From contig JAFVSK010000018.1 of the NCBI GenBank assembly GCA_017503785.1, forward strand, positions 106,079 through 170,078: a stretch of 64,000 nucleotides of DNA, in the 5' to 3' direction. The translations under genes were made by a program, and so were the position numbers. Shown here piece by piece: positions 9-53,109 of the stretch (positions are counted from its first letter, which is position 1; every line of letters starts with the position of its first letter). This DNA is from Clostridia bacterium. GTDB lineage: Bacteria; Bacillota; Clostridia; Oscillospirales; Acutalibacteraceae. Under the pieces are notes generated by a model. That model was given only the letters and a program-made list of their open reading frames with translations. It was not told the origin of the DNA and made no database searches.

Positions 9-238
9 GAGGCACCCTCCGTAAGGAAGGTGCCTCAGTTATATTCGCCTTGCGGCGAGTGATATTGCTTCGCAGTGATATTATGCTACGCATAGTGATA
101 TTGTCCTTCGGACAGTTTATAGGGCGAATATAATATCACTGAAACCGCAAGGTTTCAATATAACTTTGCCGTTAGGCAAAATATAACTGTGAGACCTGCC
201 TCACAATATCACTTAATACATTTATCTTTGAGATAGGT
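9..238 (+). repeat. Multi-hairpin intergenic element, copy A (possible structured RNA or miniature mobile element)
   Basis: Hairpin GAGGCACCCTCC-GTAA-GGAAGGTGCCTC lies at 9-36. AGT[T/G]ATATT occurs at 37-45, 58-66, 74-82 and 94-102, each followed by a short GC-rich hairpin. AATAT[C/A]ACT occurs at 132-140, 157-165, 180-188 and 205-213, each preceded by a hairpin. Nearly identical by eye to 8602-8830. The left edge is close to the window start. Confidence 0.7.
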
Positions 239-249
239 AGTATTTGAAA

Positions 250-322
250 GTAGGGGACGATGCCCACATCGTCCCGCCAAGGCTTGTACCAACGCGGGGG
301 GAACTCCCTCAACGAGGGAGCC
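250..322. repeat. REP-like GTAGGG-hairpin element
   Basis: GTAGGGGACGATG-CCCA-CATCGTCCCGCC hairpin plus a conserved tail (AAGGcTTGTACCAAcGCG..GGAACTCCCTC). The same family recurs at about 10 other sites in the window. Confidence 0.8.
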
Positions 323-2316: not shown

Positions 2317-4096
2317 ATTCTTCGGTTTTCAGCAGACCGATGCCGAGATCGGTGAGCTGTTCGGCATCCACCGCCGAGGGGCACTGTGTCATGAGCTCGG
2401 TCATGTTTTGCACCTTCGGGTAGGCCACCACGTCGCGCAGGGTGGGCGCGCCCAGCATCTGCATGACCAAGCGGTCGAGCCCCAGCGCCATGCCGCCGTG
2501 CGGCGGTGCGCCGTAGCGGAAGGCATCGGTGAGGTAGCCGAACTTGGCGTGAGATTCCTCATCCGACAAGCCGAGCGCGCGGAACATACGCTGCTGCAGC
2601 TCGGGGTTGGTGATACGAATGGAGCCGCTCGCCAGCTCGATGCCGCCGAGCACCAAGTCGTAGGCCTTGGCGAACACCTTGGACGGATCGTTATCCAGAT
2701 ACGGAATACACTCATCCAGCGGCGAGGTGAAGGGGTGGTGCATGGCCACCCAGGTTTGGCTCTCCTCGTCCCACTCGAAGAACGGGAACTCGGTGATCCA
2801 CAAAAGGCCCAGGCCTTGCTTTTCAATGTTCAGCTTGTCGGCCACCACCAGGCGCAGCGCGCCCAGCACCGACAGCACCAGCGATTTCTTCGCATCGGCT
2901 ACCACCAGCACCACGTCGCCCTGCTCGGCACCCGTGGCGGCAAGAACGGCGGCAAACTCCTCTTCGGTGAGGAACTTGCCAAACGACGAGGTAACGCCGT
3001 CGGGAGTCCAGCGCACCCACGCGAGGCCCTTGGCACCAATGCCGCGAGCGTGCTCGGTGAGCTTGTCGATCTCCTTGCGGGACAGCGTGGCCGCCGCCCC
3101 CTTGGCGGTGATGGCGCGCACCGTGCCGCCCGCCTCCAGCGCACCGGAGAACACGCCGAAGCCACAGCCGCGCACGGCATCGCTGATATCGCACAGCTCC
3201 ATGCCGAAGCGGATGTCGGGCTTATCGGAACCAAAGCGATCCATCGCTTCGGTGTAGGTCAGGCGCGGCAGCGGCGTGGGAACGTCGACATCCAGCACGG
3301 TTTTGAACACGTGCTTCATGAAGCCCTCGCCGATGGCGAGCACGTCCTCCACGTCGACAAACGACATTTCGAGGTCGATCTGCGTGAATTCGGGCTGACG
3401 GTCGGCGCGCAGGTCTTCGTCGCGGAAGCAGCGAGCCAGCTGGAAGTAGCGGTCGAATCCGGCCACCATGGACAGCTGCTTATACAGCTGCGGCGATTGC
3501 GGCAGCGCATAGAACTCGCCCTTGTGCACGCGGGACGGCACCAAGAAATCGCGGGCACCCTCGGGCGTGGAACGAATGAGCATGGGGGTTTCGATCTCAA
3601 TGAAGCCCTGCGAGTCAAAATAATCACGCGTGGCCTTCGCAATGCGATGGCGCAGCAGAATGTTCTTTTGCAGATCGGGGCGGCGCAGGTCTAAATAGCG
3701 GTACTTCAGACGCGTAGCCTCGGCGGTGGTGCTGTTTTCCGTGATCTCAAACGGGGGCGTTTCCGCCTTGTTGAGAATACGCAGCTCGGTAACGGCGATC
3801 TCCACCTCGCCGGTGGGGATCTCGGTGTTCACGGCGGAACGCACGCGCACCTCACCCGTGACGGCCAGCACGTATTCACTGCGCACGGTGCTCGCTTTTT
3901 CGAACACGTCGCGGGCGGTGGCATCGTCGAACGCGAGCTGCACGATGCCCGTGCGGTCGCGCAGGTCGATGAAAATGAGCTGACCCAGGTCGCGCTGACG
4001 CTGTGCCCAGCCGAACACCGTTACGGTATCGCCCGCGTGCTCACGGCGAAATTCGCCGCAGTAGCGCGTGCGCTTCATTCCTTGAATGGTTTCCAT
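2315..4096 (-). CDS. aspS: Aspartate--tRNA ligase
   Basis: 593 aa. The N-terminal OB-fold region (RYCGEFR..VTVFGWAQRQRDLGQLIFIDLRDRTG), class II motifs (FRDEDLRADRQPEFTQID, GGIELASGSIRI) and the C-terminal GMALGLDRLVM are recognisable. Confidence 0.95.
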   Translation of the reverse strand: METIQGMKRTRYCGEFRREHAGDTVTVFGWAQRQRDLGQLIFIDLRDRTGIVQLAFDDATARDVFEKASTVRSEYVLAVTGEVRVRSAVNTEIPTGEVEIAVTELRILNKAETPPFEITENSTTAEATRLKYRYLDLRRPDLQKNILLRHRIAKATRDYFDSQGFIEIETPMLIRSTPEGARDFLVPSRVHKGEFYALPQSPQLYKQLSMVAGFDRYFQLARCFRDEDLRADRQPEFTQIDLEMSFVDVEDVLAIGEGFMKHVFKTVLDVDVPTPLPRLTYTEAMDRFGSDKPDIRFGMELCDISDAVRGCGFGVFSGALEAGGTVRAITAKGAAATLSRKEIDKLTEHARGIGAKGLAWVRWTPDGVTSSFGKFLTEEEFAAVLAATGAEQGDVVLVVADAKKSLVLSVLGALRLVVADKLNIEKQGLGLLWITEFPFFEWDEESQTWVAMHHPFTSPLDECIPYLDNDPSKVFAKAYDLVLGGIELASGSIRITNPELQQRMFRALGLSDEESHAKFGYLTDAFRYGAPPHGGMALGLDRLVMQMLGAPTLRDVVAYPKVQNMTELMTQCPSAVDAEQLTDLGIGLLKTEE

Positions 4097-7542: not shown

Positions 7543-8586
7543 ATGACTTGTAAACGCTGGTTAGCGGCGGCTCTGTGCTTTTGCCTGCTGCTGACGTTAG
7601 GCGCCTGCGGCAGCGAGCCCGCAAGCAGCACGACCACCACGGTGGCTACCACTACCACCACGGCCGCCACGGCCGAAAACACCACCACCACGGCGACGGA
7701 AGCCACGGTCACCACCACAACCACCACAACCACCACCGCTGCGGTCACCACCACGGTGACTACGGTGAAAAAGCCCGGTATCTCCACCGGCAGGGTCACC
7801 ACCACCACGGTGACCACCACCACAACCACCACCGTGCCCGCCGGACCCTACGAGGGGCCGCTCAAATATCGGCACAACGCGGGCAAGGCCGTCATCATCG
7901 GCTGCGATGAAACGAGCGAGCCCGTGGTGATCCCGAGCAGCATCGACGGAAATCCCGTTACCAACATTGAAAACGGCGCGTTTGAGGGGTGCACGTGGCT
8001 TGTCGGCATCACCCTTCCCGATACGGTGAAGCGCCTTGGCGGTTTTGCTTTTAAGGGCTGTACCGCGCTCACCGCGGTGGATATCCCGAACAGTGTTACC
8101 GAAATCGGCGACGAAGCGTTCCGCGGCTGCACCGAGCTGGCAACCGTGACCTTTCCGCGCAGCTTAAAAGAACTGGGCGAATATGCGTTTTACGGTTGCG
8201 CCAAGCTGACGGCCGCCAACCTACCGAACGGCATCACGAGCATTGGCCGTGCCGCATTTTGCGATTGCAAGGCGCTTGCCGAGCTTACGCTGCCGAGCAG
8301 CCTCACCCACTTCGGCAATTCGGTGTTTTACGGCTGCAAGAGCCTCACCGTGGTGATCTTCCCGAGCAAGGCCACCACCATCAGCGGCGAAATGTTCCGC
8401 GGCTGCTCGGGGCTGACCACCGTGACCATTCCGGCGGGAATTACCAGCATTGGTAAAAACGCATTTTTCAATTGCAAGGCCCTCACCACCGTGCATTACG
8501 GCGGCAGCGAGGCCGACCGCAACAGCATCACGGTGTACGACGGCAATGATGCGCTGTCCTCCGCCGCGTGGAATTACGCGAAATAA
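7543..8586 (+). CDS. Lipoprotein with Thr-rich linker and BspA-type leucine-rich repeats
   Basis: Lipobox LLLTLGAC. About 70 aa of poly-Thr/Ala/Val linker. About 9 repeats of the pattern L..v.iP.sVt.IG..AF..C..L (about 23 aa each). Confidence 0.8.
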   Translation: MTCKRWLAAALCFCLLLTLGACGSEPASSTTTTVATTTTTAATAENTTTTATEATVTTTTTTTTTAAVTTTVTTVKKPGISTGRVTTTTVTTTTTTTVPAGPYEGPLKYRHNAGKAVIIGCDETSEPVVIPSSIDGNPVTNIENGAFEGCTWLVGITLPDTVKRLGGFAFKGCTALTAVDIPNSVTEIGDEAFRGCTELATVTFPRSLKELGEYAFYGCAKLTAANLPNGITSIGRAAFCDCKALAELTLPSSLTHFGNSVFYGCKSLTVVIFPSKATTISGEMFRGCSGLTTVTIPAGITSIGKNAFFNCKALTTVHYGGSEADRNSITVYDGNDALSSAAWNYAK

Positions 8587-8601
8587 CGAAAAACCGCCGT
8601 A

Positions 8602-8830
8602 GAGGCACCCTCCGTAAGGAAGGTGCCTCAGTTATATTCGCCAAAGGCGAGTTATATTGCTTCGCAGTTATATTATGCTACGCATAGTTATATTGCCCTT
8701 CGGGCAGTTTTAAGGGCGGATATAATATCACGAAAACCGATAGGTTTTCATATCACTTTGCCGAAAGGCAAAATATCACTGTGAGACCTGTCTCACAATA
8801 TCACTTATTATTCTTATCTTTGAGATAGGT
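8602..8830 (+). repeat. Multi-hairpin intergenic element, copy B
   Basis: Collinear with 9-238: same first hairpin, AGTTATATT x4, then AATATCAC[T/G]-type 9-mers x4, and the same terminal TTATCTTTGAGATAGGT. Hairpin loops differ from copy A (TTGC to AAA, GCAA to GATA, GTTA to GAAA) while stems are kept. Confidence 0.75.
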
Positions 8831-8952
8831 TAATTTTAAAGTATGTAACCCACTATGACACTTTCAAACCGAAAGTGTCAATTTTTATATAAAAAGAAAG
8901 TAGGGAGAACACTTCTTTACGAAGTGTCTCCCTAAGGCGGTTTTTTTGTTGT

Positions 8953-9066
8953 GTAGGGGCAAGGGTTTGCCCTGTAGGGACCGACGTCCTCGGCGGTCCG
9001 CCATGGATTGTACAAATGCGTGGGAAACTTCCCCCGTCATCGGCGTTGCCGTGACAGCCCCCTGCA
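8953..9066. repeat. REP-like GTAGGG-hairpin elements (cluster)
   Basis: GTAGGGGCAAGGGTTTGCCCTGTAGGGACCGACGTCCTCGGCGGTCCGCC, then the conserved tail ..TTGTACAAATGCGTGGGAAACTTCCCCC, then GTTGCCGTGACAGCCCCC. Confidence 0.75.
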
Positions 9067-16035: not shown

Positions 16036-17020
16036 ACGGTACCTCCTCCTCGAACAATCCCAAGACCTCCTGCACCTTGGGGTTGCCGTCAATAAACGTT
16101 TGATAGCCGTTTAGCCACTCATCAATGCGGACGCGCGGCACACCTAACGCCTTGCACAGCACGCTGCGCTGCTCGTCGTTCAGCTGATAGGGCGCCACGG
16201 AGCGCATGGCGGCCTCGAAGCCGTCCTTCGTGAAGATCTCCACCGCGCGGTTCACGATGGTGTTGGTGCGCACGTATTCCTCCTTGCGCTGCAGCGTTTC
16301 CTCCACCGACCAGCCCTGGTCTAACGCCAGGGTGTACATGGTCAGGGGAATAGCGCCTTCCTCGTACAGCGTGAGCAGACCCTTGCGGCGGTTTTCCTCG
16401 GCCCTGCCGGCATTGATGCCGTTGCCGCTACCGCTGCTGCCGCTGCCACCGCTGCTGCTACCGCTGCTACCGCTGCTACCGCTGCCGCTGCCACCGCCGC
16501 CACCGCTGCCGCCGCCGCTTTGTGCCTTGGCATCGGCGGCGTAGGCGGCCTTCATCAGGGCGGCGCGGTTGTCGGCGCTGTCCTTTTCGGCGGCGTTTTC
16601 TTCCTTCAGCACCGCGGCGGCGCGCTTGCTTTCCAGCGCGGCCTCTTCGCGTGCAAGAGCTTCGGTGAGCTTGCGCACCGCCTCGTCACGCGTGTTTTCC
16701 GCCGCTTGCGTGCGGCGCTGTGCCGTGACGGCGGCCGCCTGCTCGCCTGCGTGCTCGTAGCCCGAGGCCGTGAGCCCTTGATTGGCCACCCGTTCGCGCA
16801 CCTGCTTCATGGTGATCTGCTTTTGCACCGCGGCCATATCCTGCTGCGACAGCGCCGTGCGCTGCTCGTCACGAATGGCATCGGCCGTGACGTCCACCGC
16901 CGCCTGCCGTTCCTGCTCGTAGGCGGCGTTGATTTGCTCCACGTTCGCCGCCGCCTGCTGCTTACGTTGCTTTTCATACGCATCCGCCTCGGCGGCAGCC
17001 TGCGTAATATACTTACTCAT
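16016..17020 (-). CDS. Phage structural protein with coiled-coil N-terminal half and Gly/Ser linker
   Basis: 334 aa. Ala/Gln/Glu-rich helical N-terminal half, a 35-aa G/S tract (nt ~16420-16520, simple GCT/GCC repeats), and a globular C-terminus. Confidence 0.45.
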   Translation of the reverse strand: MSKYITQAAAEADAYEKQRKQQAAANVEQINAAYEQERQAAVDVTADAIRDEQRTALSQQDMAAVQKQITMKQVRERVANQGLTASGYEHAGEQAAAVTAQRRTQAAENTRDEAVRKLTEALAREEAALESKRAAAVLKEENAAEKDSADNRAALMKAAYAADAKAQSGGGSGGGGGSGSGSSGSSGSSSGGSGSSGSGNGINAGRAEENRRKGLLTLYEEGAIPLTMYTLALDQGWSVEETLQRKEEYVRTNTIVNRAVEIFTKDGFEAAMRSVAPYQLNDEQRSVLCKALGVPRVRIDEWLNGYQTFIDGNPKVQEVLGLFEEEVPYGQALY

Positions 17021-21226: not shown

Positions 21227-21509
21227 AAAAGGCCCCTCCCCGAGGGGGCTGTCACGGCAACGCCGTGACGGAGGGAGTTTCCCACGCGTTTGTGCAGCCC
21301 CCGGCGGGACGATGTGGGCATCGTCCCCTACGATGCGGATTGCCGGCCACGTAGGGAACGACCCACACGACCCCAAACCAACACCGTAGGGGGCAATGTA
21401 GCGAAAAGGCCCCCTCCCCGAGGGGGCTGTCACGGCAACGCCGTGACGGAGGGAGTTCCCCACGCGTTTGTGCAGCCCCCGGCGGGACGATGTGGGCATC
21501 GTCCCCTAC
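21227..21509. repeat. Two tandem composite REP-like units between the portal and capsid genes
   Basis: Units at 21227-21336 and 21403-21509. Each has CCCTCCCCGAGGGGGCTGTCACGGCAACGCCGTGACGGAGGGAG, a spacer, and CGGCGGGACGATG-TGGG-CATCGTCCCCTAC. Confidence 0.85.
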
Positions 21510-26585: not shown

Positions 26586-26624
26586 CCCTCGGCGGGACGA
26601 TGTGGGCATCGTCCCCTACGATGC
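26586..26624. repeat. REP-like GTAGGG-hairpin element inside the repressor leader
   Basis: CCCTCGGCGGGACGATG-TGGG-CATCGTCCCCTACGATGC. Confidence 0.8.
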
Positions 26625-28747: not shown

Positions 28748-28893
28748 ACCCTCCCCGAGGGGGCTGGCACGGCAACGCCGTGACCGGGGGAGTTTTCACG
28801 CATTTGCACGACCCTCGGCGGGACGATGTGGGCATCGTCCCCTACGGTCGCTCAACCCTTGGCGGACCGTCAAGGACGCCGGTCCCTACGATG
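28748..28893. repeat. Composite REP-like elements
   Basis: CCCTCCCCGAGGGGGCTGGCACGGCAACGCCGTGACCGGGGGAG, then CGGCGGGACGATGTGGGCATCGTCCCCTAC, then GGCGGACCGTCAAGGACGCCGGTCCCTAC. Confidence 0.8.
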
Positions 28894-32824: not shown

Positions 32825-35800
32825 TTATGCGTTCTTCTTGCGTTTCTTGTAGATCACGAAGAAGATGATGGCCGCCGTCAGCAGCAGCACGCCGCCAATG
32901 ACACCCCAACGCAGGGTCTTGTTCGCCCAGAACTGTACGATAAAGGCGTTTGAGTTGATCGAAACGTTGCCAATCGTTACAGTGTATTCATTCGCCTTAC
33001 CATCGTTGCCGCTGGCACGGTCAGTACACTCGATGCGCACGTTCTGATACAAGCCCTTGTCGATGGTAAAGGTGATTGCACCGTTACCCACAGTCAGCTC
33101 ATCAGCCAGCTTATCATCAACCAGATTGACCAATTCCTTCAGCTTATTACCGTCCTCATCCACTAAGTATACCAACAGCGAATACAGCGCACCGCCGTCG
33201 TCAGTGGGGATCAGCGTAACAACCTGCTTATCGGTCTGATATCTACCGTCTTCGGTAATACCCGACACCGTTACCACAGGCGGGGTACGGTCAACAACGA
33301 AGTTGATGGCCGCATCCTTTACGTCGCTGAACGCGTCGTTCTTTGCCTTATCGGTAGACGACACCACCAGGATGTATTCGCCCTCGGCCTCAAACAGTTC
33401 CTTCTTCACCGTGTAGGTGTAGCGCTTCCACTGGCCCACACCGCCGGTGGACTCAACCGTGTAATCGGTATCCTTCACCAGCTCCACGCCGTTGAGCGTA
33501 ACGTTGTACTCTGTCAGCACGTCGGTGTTGATCTCGTGGATCACCACGTCGCTCGTTACGTTCTTCACGTAGTACTGCTTCAGCAGCTCCTGAACGTCCT
33601 CAGACAGCTCGTAGGTGGAGCCGAAGCGGTTCACCGAGAAGAGAATAGACTTTTGGGTGGTTCTGCCTGCCATGTCGGTCAAGCTGACCGACAGCGTGTA
33701 GATATCGTCGATCTCCTTCTTCTCCGCAAAGTTGTCGAAGGTGAAGGTCTGACCGAAGGTGCGGCCGGCGCGGATATCGTCAACGGACTTACCGGAGATC
33801 TTCACGCCCTTGCGGTTTACGCCGGTCAGCGTAATGGTTACGTTGTTCTCGTCCCAGTTGGTATCCGAGTAGGTCACCACGGGGATCACGTCGCCGGCAT
33901 TGGCCGACTTGTCGGCCACACCGGTGATCTCCAACGCGGGATCAATGTTATCTACAACGAAGTTCTGCTTCGCAAAGTCAGCAGCATCGTTGCCCGCCAG
34001 ATCCTTCATCGCAATATCGAAGGTGTACTCCGCATCGGCGCTGTAGGTGATAGTGGCGGTATGCGTATCGCCGTTGGATACCCAAGCAGTGGGCGCAGGA
34101 GCTGCAACCGTTGTCAGGGGATCCTGGGCCGTGATATCAAAGGTCACGCGATCAGCGGCGAAGTTGTGCTCCGTGATGGTCACAGTTGCCACACGCGTTC
34201 TCTGATAATACTTGCCGTTGTACACGTCGTTGTTATCGTAAGTAACCACGATCACCGGCAACGTCTTATCAATGGTGAACTCATACGGCTGCACCGAATT
34301 ACCGGTTTCAACCTCTTCGTTCGCATTACCGGCTTCGTCGGTGTACTTCACACTAAACGTGTAGTCGCCGTCTGCAACGTAGTCAATGGTAGCAGTCCAA
34401 GTGGTATCGTCCAAATTGCCGGTACCCTCCGTCTTGGTCCAGCCAACCACGGCAGGAATCACGCCATCGGTATTGGTAATGTCAATTTCCACCTTTTCCT
34501 GGTTGAAATTGCGCTCGGTAATCGTGATAGTAGCCTTTCTGTCGGCCTTGAAGTACTTAACGCTGCCAACGTCGGCCTGGTTGTTATCATACGATACGTT
34601 GATCTTCGGCTTCGTGATATCGATCTGGATATCCTTATATGTGGTAATCGTCGTGTTACCGGCGTTATCGGTAGCAGTTACCGTTACACAAACGTGGTTG
34701 CTATTGAAATTGCTTGCAGGGATCACGATTTCGCCGTTCCAAGAATGGATCAACTTGTCGTACTCGCCACGCACCACTTCGCCATCAACATCGGCTTGCA
34801 GTTCAGCGTTTTCCATCAACGCCGCCGTATATTCAGCATTAATATCGGCAGCAACAATCTGGTAACTAATCTCTTTCAAACCGGAATAATATCCGTTCAG
34901 ATCAGCCGTGGCACCCACATATTTAGGATCCTGCACAAACAGCTTCACAGTTACGTCGCTGTTGTTGAAACCTAGAGCATTAGCGCCTTGAGGTGCAATG
35001 GTGATTTTCGGCGGTTGCTGTTCTTCCGAGCCATCGGGAGCCTTATCGTCCACCACGATACCACGCGAATGGATAATGGTGGTATTAGTCGACTTGTCCT
35101 CCACGCGCACATACACGATCACACGCGTGTTCGGCTCAATTCGGAAGCCGTTTTCAGCATCGTATTCCACCCAGTTTTCCTCTAATTTAAACGCCTCGTC
35201 GTGGTTGACGATCTGATACTTAACGGAAGCTACACCACTGGTCTTGTCAAAGGCCGACAGCTTCACCGTAATCGTTGTTTGCGAGAAGACGTTAAACGCG
35301 ATTTCGTTCAGATCCTCCGGCTTCACCGATTTATCGCCAACAAAGATATCCAAATCGCCGGTCAACGGAGCGGTCTTATCCACCGTAAAGGTATCGACAA
35401 CCTCGTCCTTCTGTGCATTGCCGGCCAAATCCTCGCCGGTGATCTTAATGCTGTAGTTTGCTTCGGTCTCAAACGGAATTTCGGTAACAAAAACATTCGT
35501 CGCTTCTTCCGTCCAAGTGGCTTCCTGCAAATATTCCGCATAATTAAGCACGGTTTCGCCCTGCTTAAACTCGGTAATCTTCACCTCGTCGCCGGTCGTC
35601 TTATCATATTCGAAACCGGTCACTTCCAGGTTCATCAGCGTAGCATTAAAGTTGTGCTCCTTCACCGTTACCTTAACGGTCTTGTTCTTATCGTAGAAAG
35701 CACCGTTAGCCGGCTCAATCGAAATTTCCGGCTTCGTTGTATCCACCGTAAACTCCTTCTTGTAACTGGATGCGTTACCCGAACGATCGGTATATTCAAT

Positions 35801-38800
35801 TGTCAAGGTATAATCAGCATCCTCGTTGAACGTGGGAAGAACAGCCTCGTATACATCCGCACTGCCCTCGACCTTATTAAACGTCAGATCCTTCAACAAA
35901 GTCGGCGTTTCCGGATTCTTGGTCTCGTCATCATACACCTTTGTCAGATATACCTTCAGCTTTTCCTCCACTAGATCCGCAGCTCCAAAGAAGTTGGCTT
36001 CCTCAATAACGATGGTAGCCACGGTGTCGTGGTTAGCCAAGTAAAGCTTGTTATCCACATTATTGGTGTAGAACTCATTGGTGTATTTCACGCTCACTTC
36101 GGGAGCAATGTTGTCCACCACAATAGTTTTTTCGACTCCGTCGATGTCGTCATCAACAAATTCCGTTGAGTTCTGCGATTTGTCGGTAGCCACGAACGAC
36201 ACCTTACCACGGAACTGAGCAGGAATCGTAAACACAACCTCATCCGTTACGCCGTTCACCGTCACGGAAGTATCGTCTTTGCCCGTGTTACCGGAATTGA
36301 TAGCATCTGCATCTACCGTATACTTATAGGTAAAGGTATCCAGACGGGAGGTCGTATCAGTAGCCTTCAGCGTTACCGTTACTTCATCCTTGTAGAACCC
36401 AAACACCTTACCCAAACCAAAAGTAACCGCATTCCACAGCACATTCTCAAATTTGGGCGTATACGTAATGCTCAAATCGGTAGGAGCGGTCTCATCCACC
36501 GTAAAGGTGTCAACAACCTCGTCCTTCTGTGCATTGCCGGCCAAATCCTCGCCGGTGATCTTAATGCTGTAGTTCGCTTCGGTCTCAAACGGAATTTCGG
36601 CAACCCAAACATTCGTTGCTTCTTCCGTCCAAGTGGCTTTCTGCAAATACTCCGCATAATTAAGCACGGTTTCGCCCTGCTTAAACTCGGTAATCTCCAC
36701 CTTGTCGCCGGTCGTCTTATCATATTCGAAACCGGTCACTTCCAGGTTCATCAGCTCAGCAACAAAGTTGTGCTCCTTCACCGTTACCTTAACGGTCTTG
36801 TTCTTGTCGTAGAAAGCACCGTTAGCCGGCTCAATCGAAATTTCCGGCTTCACCGTATCCACCGTAATGATCTTAGAAGTGTATTGCGCCGTACTGGCTT
36901 CCAAAGCATCGTCAGCCTTAATCGTCGAGTCGTTGGTGGAGAAATCCGCATAGTTAACCGTAATCACATAGTCGGCATCATCTTCAAGCGGAATAACCAA
37001 CGTATGCTTGTCGCCCTCGTGCTTCCACTCAAACACCGTGGTTTCGTTTACATCGGCAAAACGCTGCTCCGCATCTTCTGCAGGAAGATACTCAATCTTC
37101 GTCACCTTGCCTTGGTCGTCTGTCTTTGTTACTAAAATACCAACTTCATGAACGCTCTTACCGATAGGTGCTCCCTGCTCATCGGTGTACTTATAGCCCT
37201 CGAAGAAGTTCACCTCTTCAATGGAGATCTTAGCGTCAACACTGCCATCGTAATACGCCTGCGTTGCCGCGTTGAAATCCATCACGAACGAGTCGGCATT
37301 TCTAAAGAACACGGTGGTGTTCTCATCCTTCGGCTTATAGGCAATGTCGATCTTGGGCCCTAAGGAATCTACCACAAGAACCTTATCGCCCACCATCACA
37401 TTGCTCAACCCGGCTTTGTTGGTGGCCGTAAAGGTTATCGCCTTTTGATTCAGTTCAGCCGGAATCGTAAACGTTTTGCTTACGGTTGCATCATCCGTTG
37501 CTTCAATTGCAATCTCGCCTTCAATATCTTCGCCAATCTTATAGCTAAATTTATCCAGCTTGGAAATATCATCTGTAGCAGTAAGAGTTACCTCCATCGA
37601 AGGCTTATAGAAGCCAAACGTAACTGCTTCGATTATTTTCTCAACGATCGGCTGAGAATACTCGATCTTCAATTCCGTCGGAGCGGTCTTGTCGATCCAA
37701 ATCTCGCCAACATTCACCGCTTCACTGATATATCCGGTTTCCTCGTGCTTCAGATAGATAGCCGCCGGTGTGTTTTTGCCTTCGGTCGCTATGGTGATCT
37801 TGTCCATCCAAGTGGCATCAAACAAATCGGAATTCGAAATCTTATACCCTTCAGCAGGAGTAATATCTACGTCGATCGTATACCAGCCGCTCGCCGGAAC
37901 ATCAGGGACAGAATACTTATCCTCGAAATCGTTGGTGTTCACTTTCACAGTAGCTTCGGCAGTAATATCATTATAGTTATTGCCGCCGGCAAGCGTTGCC
38001 TTTACAGTAAAGGGGCCCGTTTTGCCGCTGTTAAATGTGAGCGCACCACTCGTATTGTTAATGGAAGCAATATCGCCATCTACTACTTCATAGGTGACCG
38101 TGCCACCGGACTGACCACCCAAGGCTGTAACCGTCAGCGTGGTTTTCGAGCCATACTGCACGCTGTATTCGCTTTGGGTAAAAGCAAAACCGGTTTGATC
38201 AGCCTTAATGGTATTGATCACATAGGTGGTAGAAATAGCTTTATAGTTATTATCCCCCGCACGGGTAGCCGTGACAGTTGCCGTACCGCCGGCCTTGATG
38301 GCTTTGACGTTACCGTTTTCGTCAACTTCCACATACTCCTGACCCGCGGTCACTTCATACGTGACCTCACCGGTGGATTGCCCACCGGTAGCCTGATTGA
38401 TTACGGTGCTGTTGTAGGGCAGATCAGGCATGGTTGCATTTTCAAAAACAAAGCCGGTTTGTTCCTCTTTGGCAATGTATACGTTGAACGGGACCGCAGC
38501 CGACTGGGCCGGCGCAACCTCAACGTCTTTATCTTCATAGTTGGCCTTGGTCACCTTGACAAACACAGTGTACGAGCCTGCGTCGACAACTGTGGGGATT
38601 TCCTCTTGCCATGCGCCATCCACGCCAAGCTTATACTTAATCGTGTAGTCAGCACCTTCGTTGCCGCTTACCGTTACCACCTTTTGCGGATTACCGGTAT
38701 AGATACCCTCAAGACCCTCAACCTTGAGACTGCCGAGGACCAATTCGCCCAAAGCGATCTCTGAGGTTACCGTTTGAACGTAAGGACGATAATTGTCACC

Positions 38801-45044: not shown

Positions 45045-45145
45045 TTTCTACTCCTCCACGTTGAATTTGTTTATGTAATCGGTAATAGTACCGTTCACAT
45101 CGTCGTCACAAAAAATTTCAAATTGTGATACACTGGTCTTAATCC

Positions 45146-45165
45146 TTCGTAGAACTGATACTTCT
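45146..45165. repeat. Inverted repeat, left arm (IRL)
   Basis: TTCGTAGAACTGATACTTCT, the exact reverse complement of 46585-46604. Confidence 0.95.
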
Positions 45166-45394
45166 AAAAATGAATATATATTCCAAAAAAAGGTATAATA
45201 CACCTACTATTGCGGTTATTATATCACTCGGAACAGGGTTTGTCAATTATTCCCTGCCGGTTTTTGTCGAAAATATTAAGAATTTGTAAATTTTTGCCGT
45301 GTGAGATTTTATGCAGTTAGTATTATTCGCCGTTTGTGGTCAGCGCTGTGGTCGGAGAACTTCTCAATCTATAATCAAGAAAGGATGATTACTT

Positions 45395-49275: not shown

Positions 49276-49440
49276 CTATTTAATCAAGAAAAATGACAAG
49301 GAATGACAAAAAATACCAATCAGCCGCCCAAAAAGATAAATTTGCACATTTCGGCTCGCAAATGACAAACCGCTCGCCCATCTGTGCACAAGCAAGAGGA
49401 TTTACGCAGAACACTTACCCAGCGAAAATCCGACTGCGCT

Positions 49441-49495
49441 GTAGGGACCGACATCCTCGGCGGTCCGCCAAGGATCGTGCTAATGCGTGGGAAGC
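49441..49495. repeat. REP-like GTAGGG-hairpin element
   Basis: GTAGGGACCGACATCCTCGGCGGTCCGCC followed by AAGGATCGTGCTAATGCGTGGGAAGC. Confidence 0.8.
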
Positions 49496-50380
49496 TTATC
49501 GACACACGCCGGTGAGGTCGAACGCCGGGATCATGGCCTCGCCCGCCGCCTCGCGGCTTTGCACGTAACCGTCGGTGAGCCCCAAATCTATCATACGCTG
49601 CCACACCTTGTCACATTCCCGCGCGGTCACACGGCGAGACAGCTCAGGATGCCCCGCCACCTCGTCCATGGGCGTGTACTGAAACATGAGGCTCACGTAG
49701 CAGCCCTGCGGCAGCACCGCGGCCAGCGTTTCCAGGCAGCGGAGCGAATCGTTGGTGTGCCCCGGCAGCACCAAATGCCGCACCACCGTGCCGCGCTGAA
49801 TAAGGCCGTGCTCATCCAGCACCACGGGCCCTGTTTGCCGTGCCATCTCACGAATGGCTGCCGCCGCAACGGCGGGATAGTCCTCGGCCCCCGACAACGC
49901 CTGCCCCAGCGCCGCCGAAGCGTATTTGTAGTCGGGCAGATACACGTCCACCAAGCCCTCCAAGGCACGCAGCGTTTCCACACGCTCCCATCCGGAGGAA
50001 TTGTACACCACCGGCACGGGCGGCCGATACTGCCGCAGCGCTTCACGCACGGCGGGCACGTAGGGCGTGGGGCTTACCAGATTGATATTGTGCGCCCCTG
50101 CCTGCACCAGCTCGCGAAAAATTTCCGCCAACCGCGCGGGCGATACGGGCGCACCTGCAGCGGTGCGACTGATGGCGCGATTTTGGCAAAACGCGCACGC
50201 CAGCGTGCAGCCGCCGAAAAACACCGTGCCCGAACCGCGCTCGCCGCTGATGCACGGCTCTTCACCGAAATGCAGCGCCGCTCGCGCCACCATGGCCGTG
50301 TTCGGCAAACGGCAACGCCCCGCCCCCTCCGTTTCTGTACGGACGGCGCGGCAGCGGTGTGGACACAACGAGCACAGCAT
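49496..50380 (-). CDS. Radical SAM protein (PflX-like activase family)
   Basis: CSLCPHRC..., then GGCTLACAFCQN (CxxxCxxC cluster) and an ..INLVSPTPY.. TIM-barrel pattern. Start at MLCSLC after GGAGGAGG. Confidence 0.7.
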   Translation of the reverse strand: MLCSLCPHRCRAVRTETEGAGRCRLPNTAMVARAALHFGEEPCISGERGSGTVFFGGCTLACAFCQNRAISRTAAGAPVSPARLAEIFRELVQAGAHNINLVSPTPYVPAVREALRQYRPPVPVVYNSSGWERVETLRALEGLVDVYLPDYKYASAALGQALSGAEDYPAVAAAAIREMARQTGPVVLDEHGLIQRGTVVRHLVLPGHTNDSLRCLETLAAVLPQGCYVSLMFQYTPMDEVAGHPELSRRVTARECDKVWQRMIDLGLTDGYVQSREAAGEAMIPAFDLTGVCR

Positions 50381-50466
50381 AGCGGTCACCTCCTCCACAG
50401 TATACACCGTTTGTGCAACAAAAACAAGCATTTGTGCACCGTTTGTGCAAAAAAAAGCGCTGCGTA

Positions 50467-50667
50467 GGGAGACTTCTCTAAGGGAAGTCTCCCAGTTTTA
50501 TTCGCCAAAGGCGAGTTCTATTGCTGCGCAGTGATATTCGGCTAACGCCGAGTGGTATTCGCTTCGCGAGTTTTGGTGGCGAATAAAATAACACTGAAAC
50601 CGAAAGGTTTCAATAACACTATTGCCGTAAGGCAATAATATCACTCCGACAAAGTCGGAATATAACT
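50467..50667 (+). repeat. Multi-hairpin intergenic element, divergent copy C
   Basis: Same order of parts as copies A and B: a long first hairpin (GGGAGACTTC..GAAGTCTCCC); AGTTTTATT, AGTTCTATT, AGTGATATT and AGTGGTATT each followed by a hairpin; then AATAACACT x2, AATATCACT and AATATAACT each flanked by hairpins. Several stems have different sequence with pairing kept. Confidence 0.7.
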
Positions 50668-50713
50668 TGAAAGACTACCGGTTTTTATGTATAATAATTT
50701 TGAGGTGATAACA

Positions 50714-51064: not shown

Positions 51065-51199
51065 GGGTTTGGGCTTACCTACAAACTCTTATGAAATAAA
51101 AAAACGCACCGGAAATATCGGTTTATCATTGGTTTCCTAAGTATGCTAAGGAAAAAAGATATATCGAAATATGGTTGCCTATAGAAAAAGCAAGATAAC

Positions 51200-51240
51200 A
51201 AAAAGTTCCAGACAGAGATTTTTCTGCCTGGAACTTTTTG
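51200..51240. terminator. Bidirectional terminator
   Basis: AAAAAGTTCCAGACAG-AGATTTTT-CTGCCTGGAACTTTTT. Confidence 0.75.
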
Positions 51241-53109
51241 TTATCCGATCTCTTTTCCGTCTTTCCAATAGCCGGCATTCACGCGGCCGTCGGCAAAGAT
51301 ATACCGCCCGGGGCCGTTACGCTCACCGTTTTCCCATTGTCCCTCAAAGCGGTCGCCGCTCTTCCAGTAATAGGTGCCACTGCCCTCGCGTTTACCGTTC
51401 ACCCACATGCCGTCGTACACGTCGCCGTCGGCATAGGTCATTTTCCCGCGGCCGTGGCGCCTACCGTTCTTCCAGTCGCCCGTGTACACCTCGCCATCCG
51501 TCCACGTGTACGTGCCATGTCCGCACTTTTGATCATTCACCCACGCGCCGCTATACACGTCGCCGTTCTTCCACGTGTACGTGCCGTGTCCGCTCACTTG
51601 ATCGTTCACCCACTCGCCGTCGTACGCGTCACCGCTTTTATAGGTCATTTTTCCGCGACCGTGACAGCGAAGTCTGCCGTGCTCGGCTTCGTGCAACGCT
51701 CCCTCGTACACACTGCCGGTGCTGTAGCGCACCCGCACGTGGTCCAGCTGCAGCACACCGTTTTGCCAGGTGCCCTCGTAGGTATCCTCACCCTCGTCCA
51801 CGTACACACCGCGGCCGTGGCGCTTACCGTCCTTCCATTCGCCCTCGTAGGTGCAATCGTCGCTCTCCTCCAGCCGTCCAAAGCCGTTGTACGCACCGTT
51901 CTTATAGCTGCCAATGTACGTTGTGCCATCGTCGTATTCCACGCGCGCATGCCCGCACGGCTCATCGTCGCGCCAATCACCGTCGTACACCACTTCACTC
52001 TCGTTACCGTATTGGTCTTTCGTTTTTTTCACGAGCTTGCCCTTGCCGTGGCGCTTATCACTTTTCCAGTCGCCCTCGTAGGTGCTGCTGTCGGCATAGG
52101 TCATCACGCCGCGACCGTGGCGCTCACCATCCTTCCAGTTGCCCTCGTACGCCGCACCGTCATTGTACACCAACCGGCCGAAGCCGTTGCGCTTGCCATT
52201 CTCTGCCATGCCGTCGTAGACAAAGCCGTCGCAAAATACCGCATGTATGTGACCGTGCGCTTTCCACTGCTTCCACTCGCCGTCCACAGAGGCGCCGTTA
52301 TCGTATGTCAGGCGGCCGCGGCCCTCGATCATGTCGTCGCACCAGTCGCCAACGTACGTGCGGTTGCTCCAGCGATACTCGCCGTGGCCGTGGCGCTTGC
52401 CGTCACGCCAGCTGCCGCGGTACACCGAGCCGTCCTTATACGTCATGGTGCCCACGCCGTGCGGCACGTCGCCCACGCGGTCGCCGCTATATTCGCCCGC
52501 CTCGGTAAACACCTGCTCGTCGGACTCCACCACCCCGAACACCTCGCCGATCTGGCGCAGCAGGGTTTCGGTGTGACCCGCCGCTTGATACTTCACGTAG
52601 GTGTGGCTTTGCGGGAACATTTCGGCCAGCACCGTCATTTTTTCCAGATCCACGCAGCCCTCGGCAAACGCTTCGCCCAGCATCTGTTGCGGGCTCTTTT
52701 GGGCCAGCTTCACGCAAAAATACGTTTTCGGCTCGGCGCCCTCCACCGGCTTGCCGTGTTCGTCGCACCCGCGGGTAAACTGCACCTCGCGGTAAATGGC
52801 ACTGCTGCGCAGCATGCTTTCACTCAAATAAAAAATTACGCCGCGGCAGTTGGGATGCTGGATCCACGCCTGCGCATCGTCGTCCCACGCTTCGCCGGCC
52901 GTGAAATGCCGATCGTAGAAAAACCGCACGTTTTGATCGTACAGATCGGCCAAGTCGGCGTACACCTGCTTGTAATCCACGCGCGCATAGCTGATGAACA
53001 CAAAGGTCTTTTTTTCGCGGTCAAACTCGGGCAGGGGCACCTTGTCGCACACATCCAGACTGCTTGCCGCCGCCAGTTGTTTTTTGTATTCTTCGCTGTT
53101 AAACGCCAT
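51241..53109 (-). CDS. TIR-domain protein with a long MORN-repeat array
   Basis: N-terminal [38 protein letters not shown]...[20 protein letters not shown] (TIR_2-like). The C-terminal ~400 aa hold about 16-17 repeats of the type Y.G.W.dGkrHG.G. The ATG at 53109 follows GAGGAGG. Confidence 0.8.

Follow-up and report, generated by a model that had tools for sequence, protein, structure and literature searches.

This study concerns a multi-hairpin sequence of ~180 nt that is present three times in a stretch of 64,000 nt (the window, always meant at its full length) from the genome of a Clostridia bacterium of the family Acutalibacteraceae (assembly GCA_017503785.1, contig JAFVSK010000018.1, positions 106,079 to 170,078 of the forward strand). 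The three copies of this core occupy positions 9-215 (copy A), 8602-8810 (copy B) and 50467-50667 (copy C) of the window. The core is a convergent, mirror-image pair of motifs of the Rfam family Gut-1 (RF01706), and it is part of an element of 0.3-0.9 kb with terminal inverted repeats, which in a number of loci separates the two arms of an intrinsic terminator and in some copies carries a gene for a protein of the S23p/Avd fold. Taking these observations together, the feature is probably the conserved core of a family of non-autonomous insertion elements of gut Clostridia, tolerated in hairpin loops by folding away.

According to this proposal, the element would consist, in this order, of a terminal-repeat hairpin, the mirror-image Gut-1 pair, an optional cargo and an inverted terminal repeat, and it would lodge, in either orientation, in the apical loop of intrinsic-terminator hairpins at the 3' ends of genes. 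There, the insert would fold on itself into a closed bundle of hairpins, letting the separated arms of the host terminator still pair before the U-run, so that the insertion would be tolerated. The hairpin arrays and their linkers may act in cis as a structure that a mobilising activity, provided in trans, recognises in single strands; they may also, or instead, form the fold by which an interrupted terminator goes on working. The sequences themselves show the build of the element, the covariation, the terminal repeats, the split terminators, the variety of genomic contexts and the link to the gene; we infer mobility as the mechanism, a terminator that would preserve its function and, since the arrays are conserved across the copies of a dispersed selfish element, a need for them in its spread or its tolerance.

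The mirror-image Gut-1 core

Copies A and B align column for column with copy C and share its order of parts. A covariance model of the core matches exactly these three copies (E 1e-38 to 6e-43; 175.6 bits for copy A and 171.7 bits for copy B) and finds no fourth one in the window, a weak match at 45110-45254 having been rejected as plain A/T-rich spacer. Taking into account these E-values, the frequency of the linker AGTKATATT (17 occurrences in the window against 0.37 expected) and the folding of copy C (z = -7.8 on the plus strand, z = -7.4 on the minus strand), the core lies far beyond chance.

The left half of the copies corresponds to Gut-1, with a covariance score of 66.2 bits in copy A, above the gathering score of 50, and a score below this threshold in copy C (Table 1), whose close homologues reach 40.8-60.3 bits. 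The hallmark of the motif, three consecutive covarying hairpins joined by conserved GUGAnAU linkers, is present in copy C. On the minus strand, the right half is also recognised by this model, weakly in copy C and with 51.5 bits, above gathering, in the homologue L048, and it is this match on the opposite strand that makes the unit a mirror-image pair. Each array consists of short G+C-rich hairpins, three or four in number and variable in sequence, which are spaced by the conserved 9-mer AGTGATATT or its complement. In copy C, the left array is preceded by hairpin 1, which a terminator scan scores as terminator-like, with the tail AGTTTTATTC, and its hairpins are enclosed by the long-range helix P1, seen in both the minimum-free-energy (MFE) and the centroid folds. 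The counterparts of the P1 arms in copy A are TTATATTCGCC and GGCGAATATAA. Two partners are open to the 5' arm TCGCC: the adjacent GGCGA, with which it forms the local hairpin 50502-50514 of the Rfam model, and the distant centre (11-12 bp); these two pairings are mutually exclusive, and a switch between them is possible.

Gut-1 goes back to a description of 2010 by Weinberg et al. (PMC2864571), who had 43 representatives from human-gut metagenomes, gave neither a function nor an organism and graded the motif a certain RNA. The motif itself was thus already known in Rfam, although the first-pass annotation of this DNA did not recognise it. The seed alignment of 2010 holds members of the present family, one of them adjacent to a tRNA gene; in it, hairpin 1 is annotated as a predicted terminator, and the unannotated flank contains the right half. 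No later work on Gut-1 was found in the literature searched in full text, and no description was found there of motifs paired as mirror images, of covariation in the long-range helix, of elements with terminal repeats residing in terminator loops, or of a tie to an S23p/Avd-fold gene.

A pattern scan of 185,579 species genomes yielded at least 118 loci. Of the first left hairpin the pattern fixes the 3' arm, and the second one it fixes entirely, so that their invariance is by construction. Among the matches listed, all the loci belong to Clostridia genomes (Acutalibacteraceae, Oscillospiraceae, Eubacteriales, Christensenellaceae and one Roseburia bin), nearly all of them metagenome-assembled bins from human and ruminant gut. 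The covariance model gave 104 matches at E < 1e-15. When viral contigs were scanned with a pattern of the linkers only, 35 of the 36 matches were due to chance. The architecture is rigid, most copies having four left and four right linkers in a core of about 180 nt. Some copies carry 20-40 nt of additional sequence in the core (L092 at 3845-4054, L093, L099, L107, L140 and L150), in L092 as a further hairpin inside the right half, and L091 shows tandem or partial arrays; evidently, hairpin units can be gained, lost or nested.

Covariation was assessed on an alignment of 66 distinct copies made with MAFFT and not fitted to the structure, with shuffled columns and partners slid by 1-3 columns as controls. 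Paired bases occupied 89.4% of the cells, compared with 74.3% in the shuffles (none of 500 reached the observed value) and about 40% with slid partners, and both-sided changes were found in 362 cells, compared with 111 in the shuffles. A model-based alignment of 103 distinct copies had 93.2% of the cells paired against 71.9%, 617 double-sided cells against 173, and compensatory changes in 24 of the 33 pairs. The covariation extends over the seven hairpins and the long-range helix, where one P1 pair has three states in the 66-copy alignment (UA 26, AU 22, CG 14), among them the A:T to T:A swap that separates copies A and C. The base-pairing of the core is strongly selected.

These data bear out what the first-pass annotation had claimed, namely that copy C is a divergent third copy which keeps its architecture through compensatory changes, that swap in the long-range helix included; in the larger sets the compensatory changes proved significant, contrary to what a refutation of this claim would have required. 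The hairpins, arms and GAAA and GTAA right-half loops that it had listed for copy C are all in place. Thus, the hairpin at 50539-50550 is CGGC-TAAC-GCCG in copy C and ATGC-TAC-GCAT in copies A and B, and the one at 50646-50658 is CCGAC-AAA-GTCGG in copy C and GTGAG-ACCTGY-CTCAC in the other two. Its proposal of selection on pairing in RNA or single-stranded DNA (ssDNA) agrees with the covariation, and it rightly made no choice between the two molecules.

Element ends, interrupted terminators and cargo

Homology between copies, as delimited by blastn (8597-8935 for copy B, 5-252 for copy A and 50465 to about 51085 for copy C), begins at hairpin 1 and extends well beyond the core. Copies that are 90-94% identical and have unrelated flanks occur; copy B, for instance, is 94% identical to locus L116 from another genome, with unrelated flanks. 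In many copies the right end is an inverted hairpin 1, exact over 9-14 nt and similar over about 20-25 nt, and these terminal repeats co-vary by lineage. The left flank of copy A is cut by the start of the window, and its right side adjoins an unrelated repeat of the repetitive extragenic palindrome (REP) type; the hairpin GGGGACGATG...CATCGTCCC after this copy was considered as its right terminal repeat and rejected, as it belongs to the REP-like family.

Outside these ends, the sequences flanking the element are complementary to each other more often than expected. Among 84 copies with sufficient flanking sequence, the 5' flank has an exact inverted downstream partner of at least 12 nt in 16 (1.5 by permutation) and of at least 10 nt in 31 (11 by permutation). 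In 22 cases an A-run and a G+C-rich arm are followed, after 1-10 nt, by the element, and this, after a few nt, by the complementary arm and a T-run, that is, by the second half of a terminator whose arm sequences are specific to each locus. Most of the inserts measure 281-407 nt; two longer ones reach 586 nt and 810 nt, the latter with the gene; L171 is a further gene-bearing case, with an insert of about 820 nt.

Copy B splits such a terminator just past the stop codon of the upstream gene (Table 1). Its insert and flanks together fold with z = -11.6, and the MFE and centroid folds both close the host arms directly before the U-run; the host arms are likewise closed in both folds of the 820-nt insert of L171. 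In the phage contig L031, terminator arms of 13 bp flank the element, and the same terminator is intact, with a 6-nt loop, in a 75-78% related phage from the same sample with the same order of blocks, as well as in a second viral contig. The genes on either side of the element converge in 18 cases, run in tandem in 11 and 10 (the two orientations of the element) and diverge in 2, which places the element at the 3' ends of genes without preference for an orientation.

Empty sites corresponding to the window copies were also sought. For copy B, a metagenome scan matched only an unrelated proteobacterial terminator, by chance, and the contigs found through the exact proteins flanking this copy stop at the element: the public short-read contigs L160, L161, L163 and L164, which contain the flanking genes, end within about 45 nt and about 220-285 nt of it, indicating that the repeat breaks assemblies. 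For copy C, neither flanking protein (radical SAM or MORN/TIR) has an exact match in the assembly collection. Just to the left of this copy (50409-50450), in the region upstream of the radical-SAM gene on the minus strand, CCGTTTGTGCA(A) is directly repeated; an A-run and GCGCTGC follow and resemble the left half of a split terminator, the right half of which is missing from the window.

As the first-pass annotation had stated, copy C lies at the edge of an A/T-rich insert and adjoins an open reading frame (ORF) resembling Avd, an arrangement that recurs in other copies. The TTG start of this ORF comes 46 nt after the end of the core. Its product belongs to the S23p family (PF05635, E 4.8e-28, 97.9 bits against a cut-off of 33.8; TIGR02436, 106.7 bits against a cut-off of 24) and is close to PDB 2rld; it has no match in PHROG or PADLOC. 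The AlphaFold model has four helices (pLDDT 94), and Foldseek matches it to 2rld (TM 0.93), then to 2gsc, the pentameric S23p of Xanthomonas, and then, as the third-best distinct match, to 4dwl, the Avd of a Bordetella phage diversity-generating retroelement (DGR), with TM 0.80 at 15% identity. Homologues 85-97% identical number thousands in gut metagenomes, mostly on short contigs.

From the side of the protein, the linkage to the element is complete: five close homologues traced by exact sequence led to ten places in five gene contexts, with the core 44-60 nt upstream in all ten. From the side of the element, the gene stands at the fixed offset in 8 of about 81 copies with sufficient downstream sequence, copy C included, and about 90% of the scanned copies have no ORF. 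It is the only protein that neighbourhood clustering found to be specifically recurrent near the element; ABC-transporter and AraC-type families also recur, without a fixed position. The promoter of copy C is kept at the same offset in the other ORF-bearing copies, and 15 of the 94 copies, chiefly ones with cargo, have a promoter scoring at least 10/12 after the last linker. Two further roles were examined and rejected: the element is not a 5' leader of the ORF, since a strong promoter lies between them, and the Gut-1 pair is not consistently an upstream accessory of a promoter (an insulator or UP-element), given that 15/94 frequency. In copy C, the tail of the insert contains a bidirectional terminator hairpin at 51196-51243, detected by the terminator scan.

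Table 1. Coordinates of the element copies, their parts and neighbouring features in the window
Feature	Position	Strand	Remarks
Copy A	9..252	+	hairpin 1 at 9-36, Gut-1 pair 37-213, short 3' extension to about 252
Copy B, complete ORF-less element, 331 nt	8602..8932	+	left repeat hairpin 8602-8629, Gut-1 pair 8630-8805, internal module, right repeat hairpin 8903-8932; from sequence, model match and homology limits
Host terminator 5' arm split by copy B	8589..8598	+	AAAAACCGCC, 3 nt before the element
Host terminator 3' arm and T-run split by copy B	8936..8947	+	GGCGGTTTTTTT; fold pairs 8589-8598 with 8936-8945
Copy C, hairpin 1 (left terminal inverted repeat)	50467..50493	+	GGGAGACTTCTC-TAA-GGGAAGTCTCCC, 12-bp G+C-rich stem, TAA loop
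Copy C, left Gut-1 motif	50493..50563	+	Rfam RF01706, 40.7 bits, E 8.6e-6; covariation
Copy C, left hairpins	50502-50514, 50522-50530, 50539-50550, 50560-50568	+	spaced by 9-nt linkers AGTNNTATT
Copy C, long-range helix P1	50495..50589	+	GTTTTATTCGCC (50495-50506) with GGCGAATAAAAT (50578-50589)
Copy C, right Gut-1 motif	50587..50667	-	Rfam Gut-1, 25.5 bits; all right-half pairs covary
Copy C, right hairpins	50596-50611, 50621-50636, 50646-50658		spaced by AATAWCACT linkers, complementary to left linkers
Copy C, predicted sigma-70-type promoter	50667..50695	+	TTGAAA-17-TATAAT, score 11/12; -35 overlaps last linker
Copy C, cargo ORF, 116 aa	50714..51064	+	four-helix bundle, S23p / 23S rRNA IVS protein family; TTG start, GAGGTG ribosome-binding site
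Copy C, tail of A/T-rich insert	51065..51243	.	homology to other copies stops near 51085 (blastn)
Gene beside copy C, 633 aa	51241-53142	-	nine MORN repeats; weak N-terminal TIR match, 26.7 bits against a cut-off of 28
REP-like repeat, five exact copies	250-275(+), 21306-21331(-), 21484-21509(-), 26594-26619(-), 28820-28845(-)

Weighing the explanations

Several observations count against the interpretation as an insertion element. No transposase or recombinase was found inside the element or recurrently near it in 121 loci, and none of the loci examined contains an autonomous version with the arrays separated by cargo, lone left arrays looking like decayed copies. The junctions are compatible with target duplications of 0-3 bp (TA, TT, TG, CG or none) and follow no rule. 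Between L031 and the phage with the intact terminator there are indels on both sides, without homology in the immediate flanks. In copy C itself, no right terminal repeat was identified and only the left half of a split terminator is seen. Conservation is higher in the 9-nt linkers than in the terminal repeats, a hint that the linkers have some sequence-specific function. Continued termination by an interrupted terminator is a prediction of thermodynamic folding, and the pattern used in the scan skews the sample of genomes to one branch of the family.

To these points a subfamily has to be added in which the core comes directly after a canonical terminator that is intact and stands behind tRNA genes, and in which neither the TAAGG-loop hairpin nor a split stem is present (L049, L051, L055, L057, L064, L069, L087, L088, L121, L150 and L172). 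Here, the core is followed by a conserved promoter, TTGC..-17-TATACT, and the ribosome-binding site AGGCGGTGA, and then by varied small ORFs encoding membrane or lipoprotein-like or XRE-type products, or by the four-helix-bundle gene, so that the whole resembles a portable expression cassette. The human-faecal phage MT835815.1 has the series of tRNA, terminator, core, promoter and four-helix-bundle gene, the last at 70% nucleotide identity, and agrees with one of the 2010 Gut-1 seed sequences at almost every base. As a module, the Gut-1 pair can thus occur without the frame of terminal repeats and split terminator, a fact which the proposed mechanism does not explain.

No consistent strand for the core emerges from its stems and loops. 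The stems are almost purely Watson-Crick, wobble pairs being near 1.4% of the paired cells, and the plus and minus strands fold about equally well. The functional strand was sought in the asymmetry between G.T and A.C, and this approach was dropped as dependent on the parse and not robust: an end-anchored parse of the right half gave 23 against 6 on the plus strand, and the model-based alignment 25:35 for the right half, 18:9 for the left half and 43:44 overall. On the plus strand, the left-half loops are C(TTC)G (94), C(TAC)G (46) and C(TGC)G (18), together with TTAC, TTGC and TAAC, and those of the right half are C(AAA)G, C(GAA)G, GCAA, GAAA and GTAA; with such mirror-image loops, the two halves look alike when read on opposite strands. 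A rod, in which the left linkers would pair with the right ones as exact complements, was rejected because their G/T variant states mismatch (left TGGG and right GTTG in copy A, left TTTT and right GGGG in copy B); the right linkers are far more uniform than the left ones, and the two sets show no mutual covariation. A promoter-like site on the minus strand, pointing into the left half, is seen in the right half of all three copies (130-158, 8722-8751 and 50585-50613), with TTGAAA or ATGAAA, 17-18 nt, and TATTAT or TATTTT with TG (extended -10). Its reality is doubtful, since elsewhere in the family the hairpin that provides its -35 covaries freely.

It is unlikely that the arrays are free-standing small RNA (sRNA) genes, each array being a trans-acting Gut-1 sRNA and the copies being paralogous genes or a convergent pair of sRNAs. 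Such an account would agree with the strong covariation and the grade of certain RNA given to Gut-1 in 2010 (PMC2864571), as well as with Rfam scores above gathering for copy A and for both halves of L048. It could also draw on the AGTTTT that comes after the last left hairpin, on the minus-strand promoter-like site, and on an excess of G.T over A.C (53 against 34) when each half is counted in its Gut-1 orientation. However, the left array begins right after a terminator-like hairpin, with no promoter upstream, and the minus-strand site lacks a conserved -35. Moreover, G.U is very rare and without overall strand bias, and the loops in Gut-1 orientation are the triloops C(TTC)G and C(TAC)G, which are not known stable RNA loops. 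Finally, terminal repeats, split terminators and random orientation are properties of insertion elements.

A ribonucleoprotein, in which the pentameric Avd-fold protein would bind the hairpin array as RNA or ssDNA, with copies A and B bound in trans, in the way that Avd acts with the DGR RNA, seems quite unlikely. The complete linkage from the protein side, the match of the fold to Avd and the fact that this is the only protein associated with the element speak for it, and a pentamer would be well matched by four or five repeated units, the S23p of Xanthomonas being a homopentamer (PMC4990558). Nevertheless, about nine tenths of the copies lack the gene, the promoter between array and ORF makes co-transcription unnecessary, the core of the tRNA-adjacent subfamily is followed by other cargo genes, and neither a reverse transcriptase nor template/variable repeats were found nearby.

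We consider it very unlikely that the core acts as an array of duplex DNA sites, in which the 9-mers, four direct and four inverted, would be bound by a transposase, a regulator or a nucleoid protein, as in the ends of Tn7 or Mu, the palindromes being incidental spacers. The dyad symmetry, the position of the linkers as the most conserved part, their resemblance to extended -10 elements (TGnTATT) and the wobble pairs without strand bias are what this model would predict or accommodate; yet the spacers, which vary freely, are 93-98% Watson-Crick paired with compensatory changes, and binding to duplex DNA leaves this unexplained. Furthermore, the spacing of the linkers varies from 16 to 23 bp, and the left and right variants do not covary. 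A remnant or part of a DGR, to which the Avd-like ORF and the rank of 4dwl among the structural matches could point, is effectively refuted, as there is no template/variable repeat pair anywhere in the window and no reverse transcriptase among the genes called beside the ORF in eight contexts, and the protein belongs to the S23p/TIGR02436 branch.

Other window features and known systems

Some repeats of the window are unrelated to the core. The REP-like family has a GTAG head and a G+C-rich hairpin (GTAGGGGACGATGCCCACATCGTCCC); in addition to its exact copies (Table 1), variants lie near 8968-9030 and 49435-49497, and diverged copies share an extension of 60-100 nt. One of its units adjoins copy A, another comes just after the terminator of copy B, and a third lies about 1 kb upstream of copy C. 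CAC/CGC-rich repeats with a 9-nt period, found inside long ORFs at 7620-7843 and 16420-16517, are of low complexity. A direct repeat of 300 nt, 95% identical (35367-35666 and 36483-36782), has both units inside a stretch of lower G+C content at about 34-46 kb (0.42-0.53, against about 0.6 elsewhere), which may be an island or a prophage region. To judge from its domains, the MORN/TIR protein encoded beside copy C may be related to defence.

Gut-1, which has stood in Rfam since 2010 without a context, can now be placed as one half of the mirror-symmetric core of an abundant element that dwells in terminators, and two orphans become joined, Gut-1 and the PF05635/S23p proteins, which are widespread and without known function. 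How the intervening sequences (IVSs) of 23S rRNA arrive in hairpin loops has been an open question since about 1990. With its hundreds of recent copies, filled and intact terminators, forms with and without the gene, and a promoter of its own, the present family makes this question testable in ordinary genes instead of rRNA. From a practical point of view, assemblies from short reads break at the element, which also brings promoters and terminators to the ends of genes and can be mistaken for sRNA genes in annotation.

With the Gut-1 of Rfam, the present family shares the variable hairpins spaced by GUGAnAU-type linkers, which form the left half of every copy. The Rfam family models a single array, without function or context, whereas the element described here has a mirror pair, a covarying long-range helix, a terminal-repeat hairpin, split terminators and an optional cargo.

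Like miniature inverted-repeat transposable elements (MITEs) and mosaic repeats (Correia/NEMIS, ERIC, BOX and RUP; REP and bacterial interspersed mosaic elements, BIMEs), the element is short, multi-copy, non-coding and highly structured, with terminal inverted repeats, a modular build, a location at the 3' ends of genes and co-transcription with host genes. It differs from them in having neither a fixed TA duplication nor a known cognate transposase, in its target, which is the loop of a terminator hairpin, and in that a promoter and a gene may be carried. Identity with REP/BIME, defined by a conserved palindrome, a GTAG head and alternating orientation, was ruled out, since here the linkers are conserved and the palindromes vary, the reverse of REP. 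A stem-loop is also the insertion landmark of group IIC introns and of IS1397 and ISKpn1 (in REP loops), group IIC introns inserting after the hairpin and not in its loop. Unlike in these, no ribozyme, reverse transcriptase or transposase is present in the element, and Rfam detects no intron domain. With the Avd of DGRs, finally, the cargo protein has in common the four-helix-bundle fold, at an identity of 15%, and it is accompanied by neither a reverse transcriptase nor template/variable repeats.

Together with MITEs, the closest parallels are offered by the S23p IVSs of 23S rRNA in Coxiella, Leptospira and Brucella (PMC4990558), which sit in hairpin loops according to the principle of tolerance proposed here for the element. 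The IVS of Coxiella is a selfish element of 428 nt at the apex of 23S helix 45, excised by RNase III, whose terminal inverted repeats form a stem of 28 bp and whose S23p ORF is preceded by short repeats; its origin is unknown, and it could be a remnant of transposition (PMC4990558). Both systems are small selfish inserts (0.4-0.8 kb) at the apex of an RNA hairpin, with complementary termini that extend the host stem and a PF05635 four-helix-bundle ORF preceded by short repeats (here in copy C and about 10% of the copies), and both lack a transposase and have an unknown mode of spread. They differ in their hosts, since the IVSs sit in helix 25 or 45 of 23S rRNA and the present elements in terminator hairpins after protein or tRNA genes, an Rfam scan finding no rRNA in the window. 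The present element has, moreover, its own strong promoter and ribosome-binding site, its gene is missing from most copies, and Gut-1 arrays have not been described for S23p IVSs.

By analogy, it could be proposed that elements with a Gut-1 pair and the S23p IVSs form one mobile class that invades hairpin loops through an ssRNA or ssDNA intermediate. The arrays would be the cis recognition structure, and the Avd-fold pentamer a chaperone or cofactor recruiting a polymerase or nuclease in trans, as Avd does for the reverse transcriptase of DGRs. Such a unification is distinctly improbable as matters stand; if it were true, it would represent a mechanism of mobility without a transposase encoded by the element.

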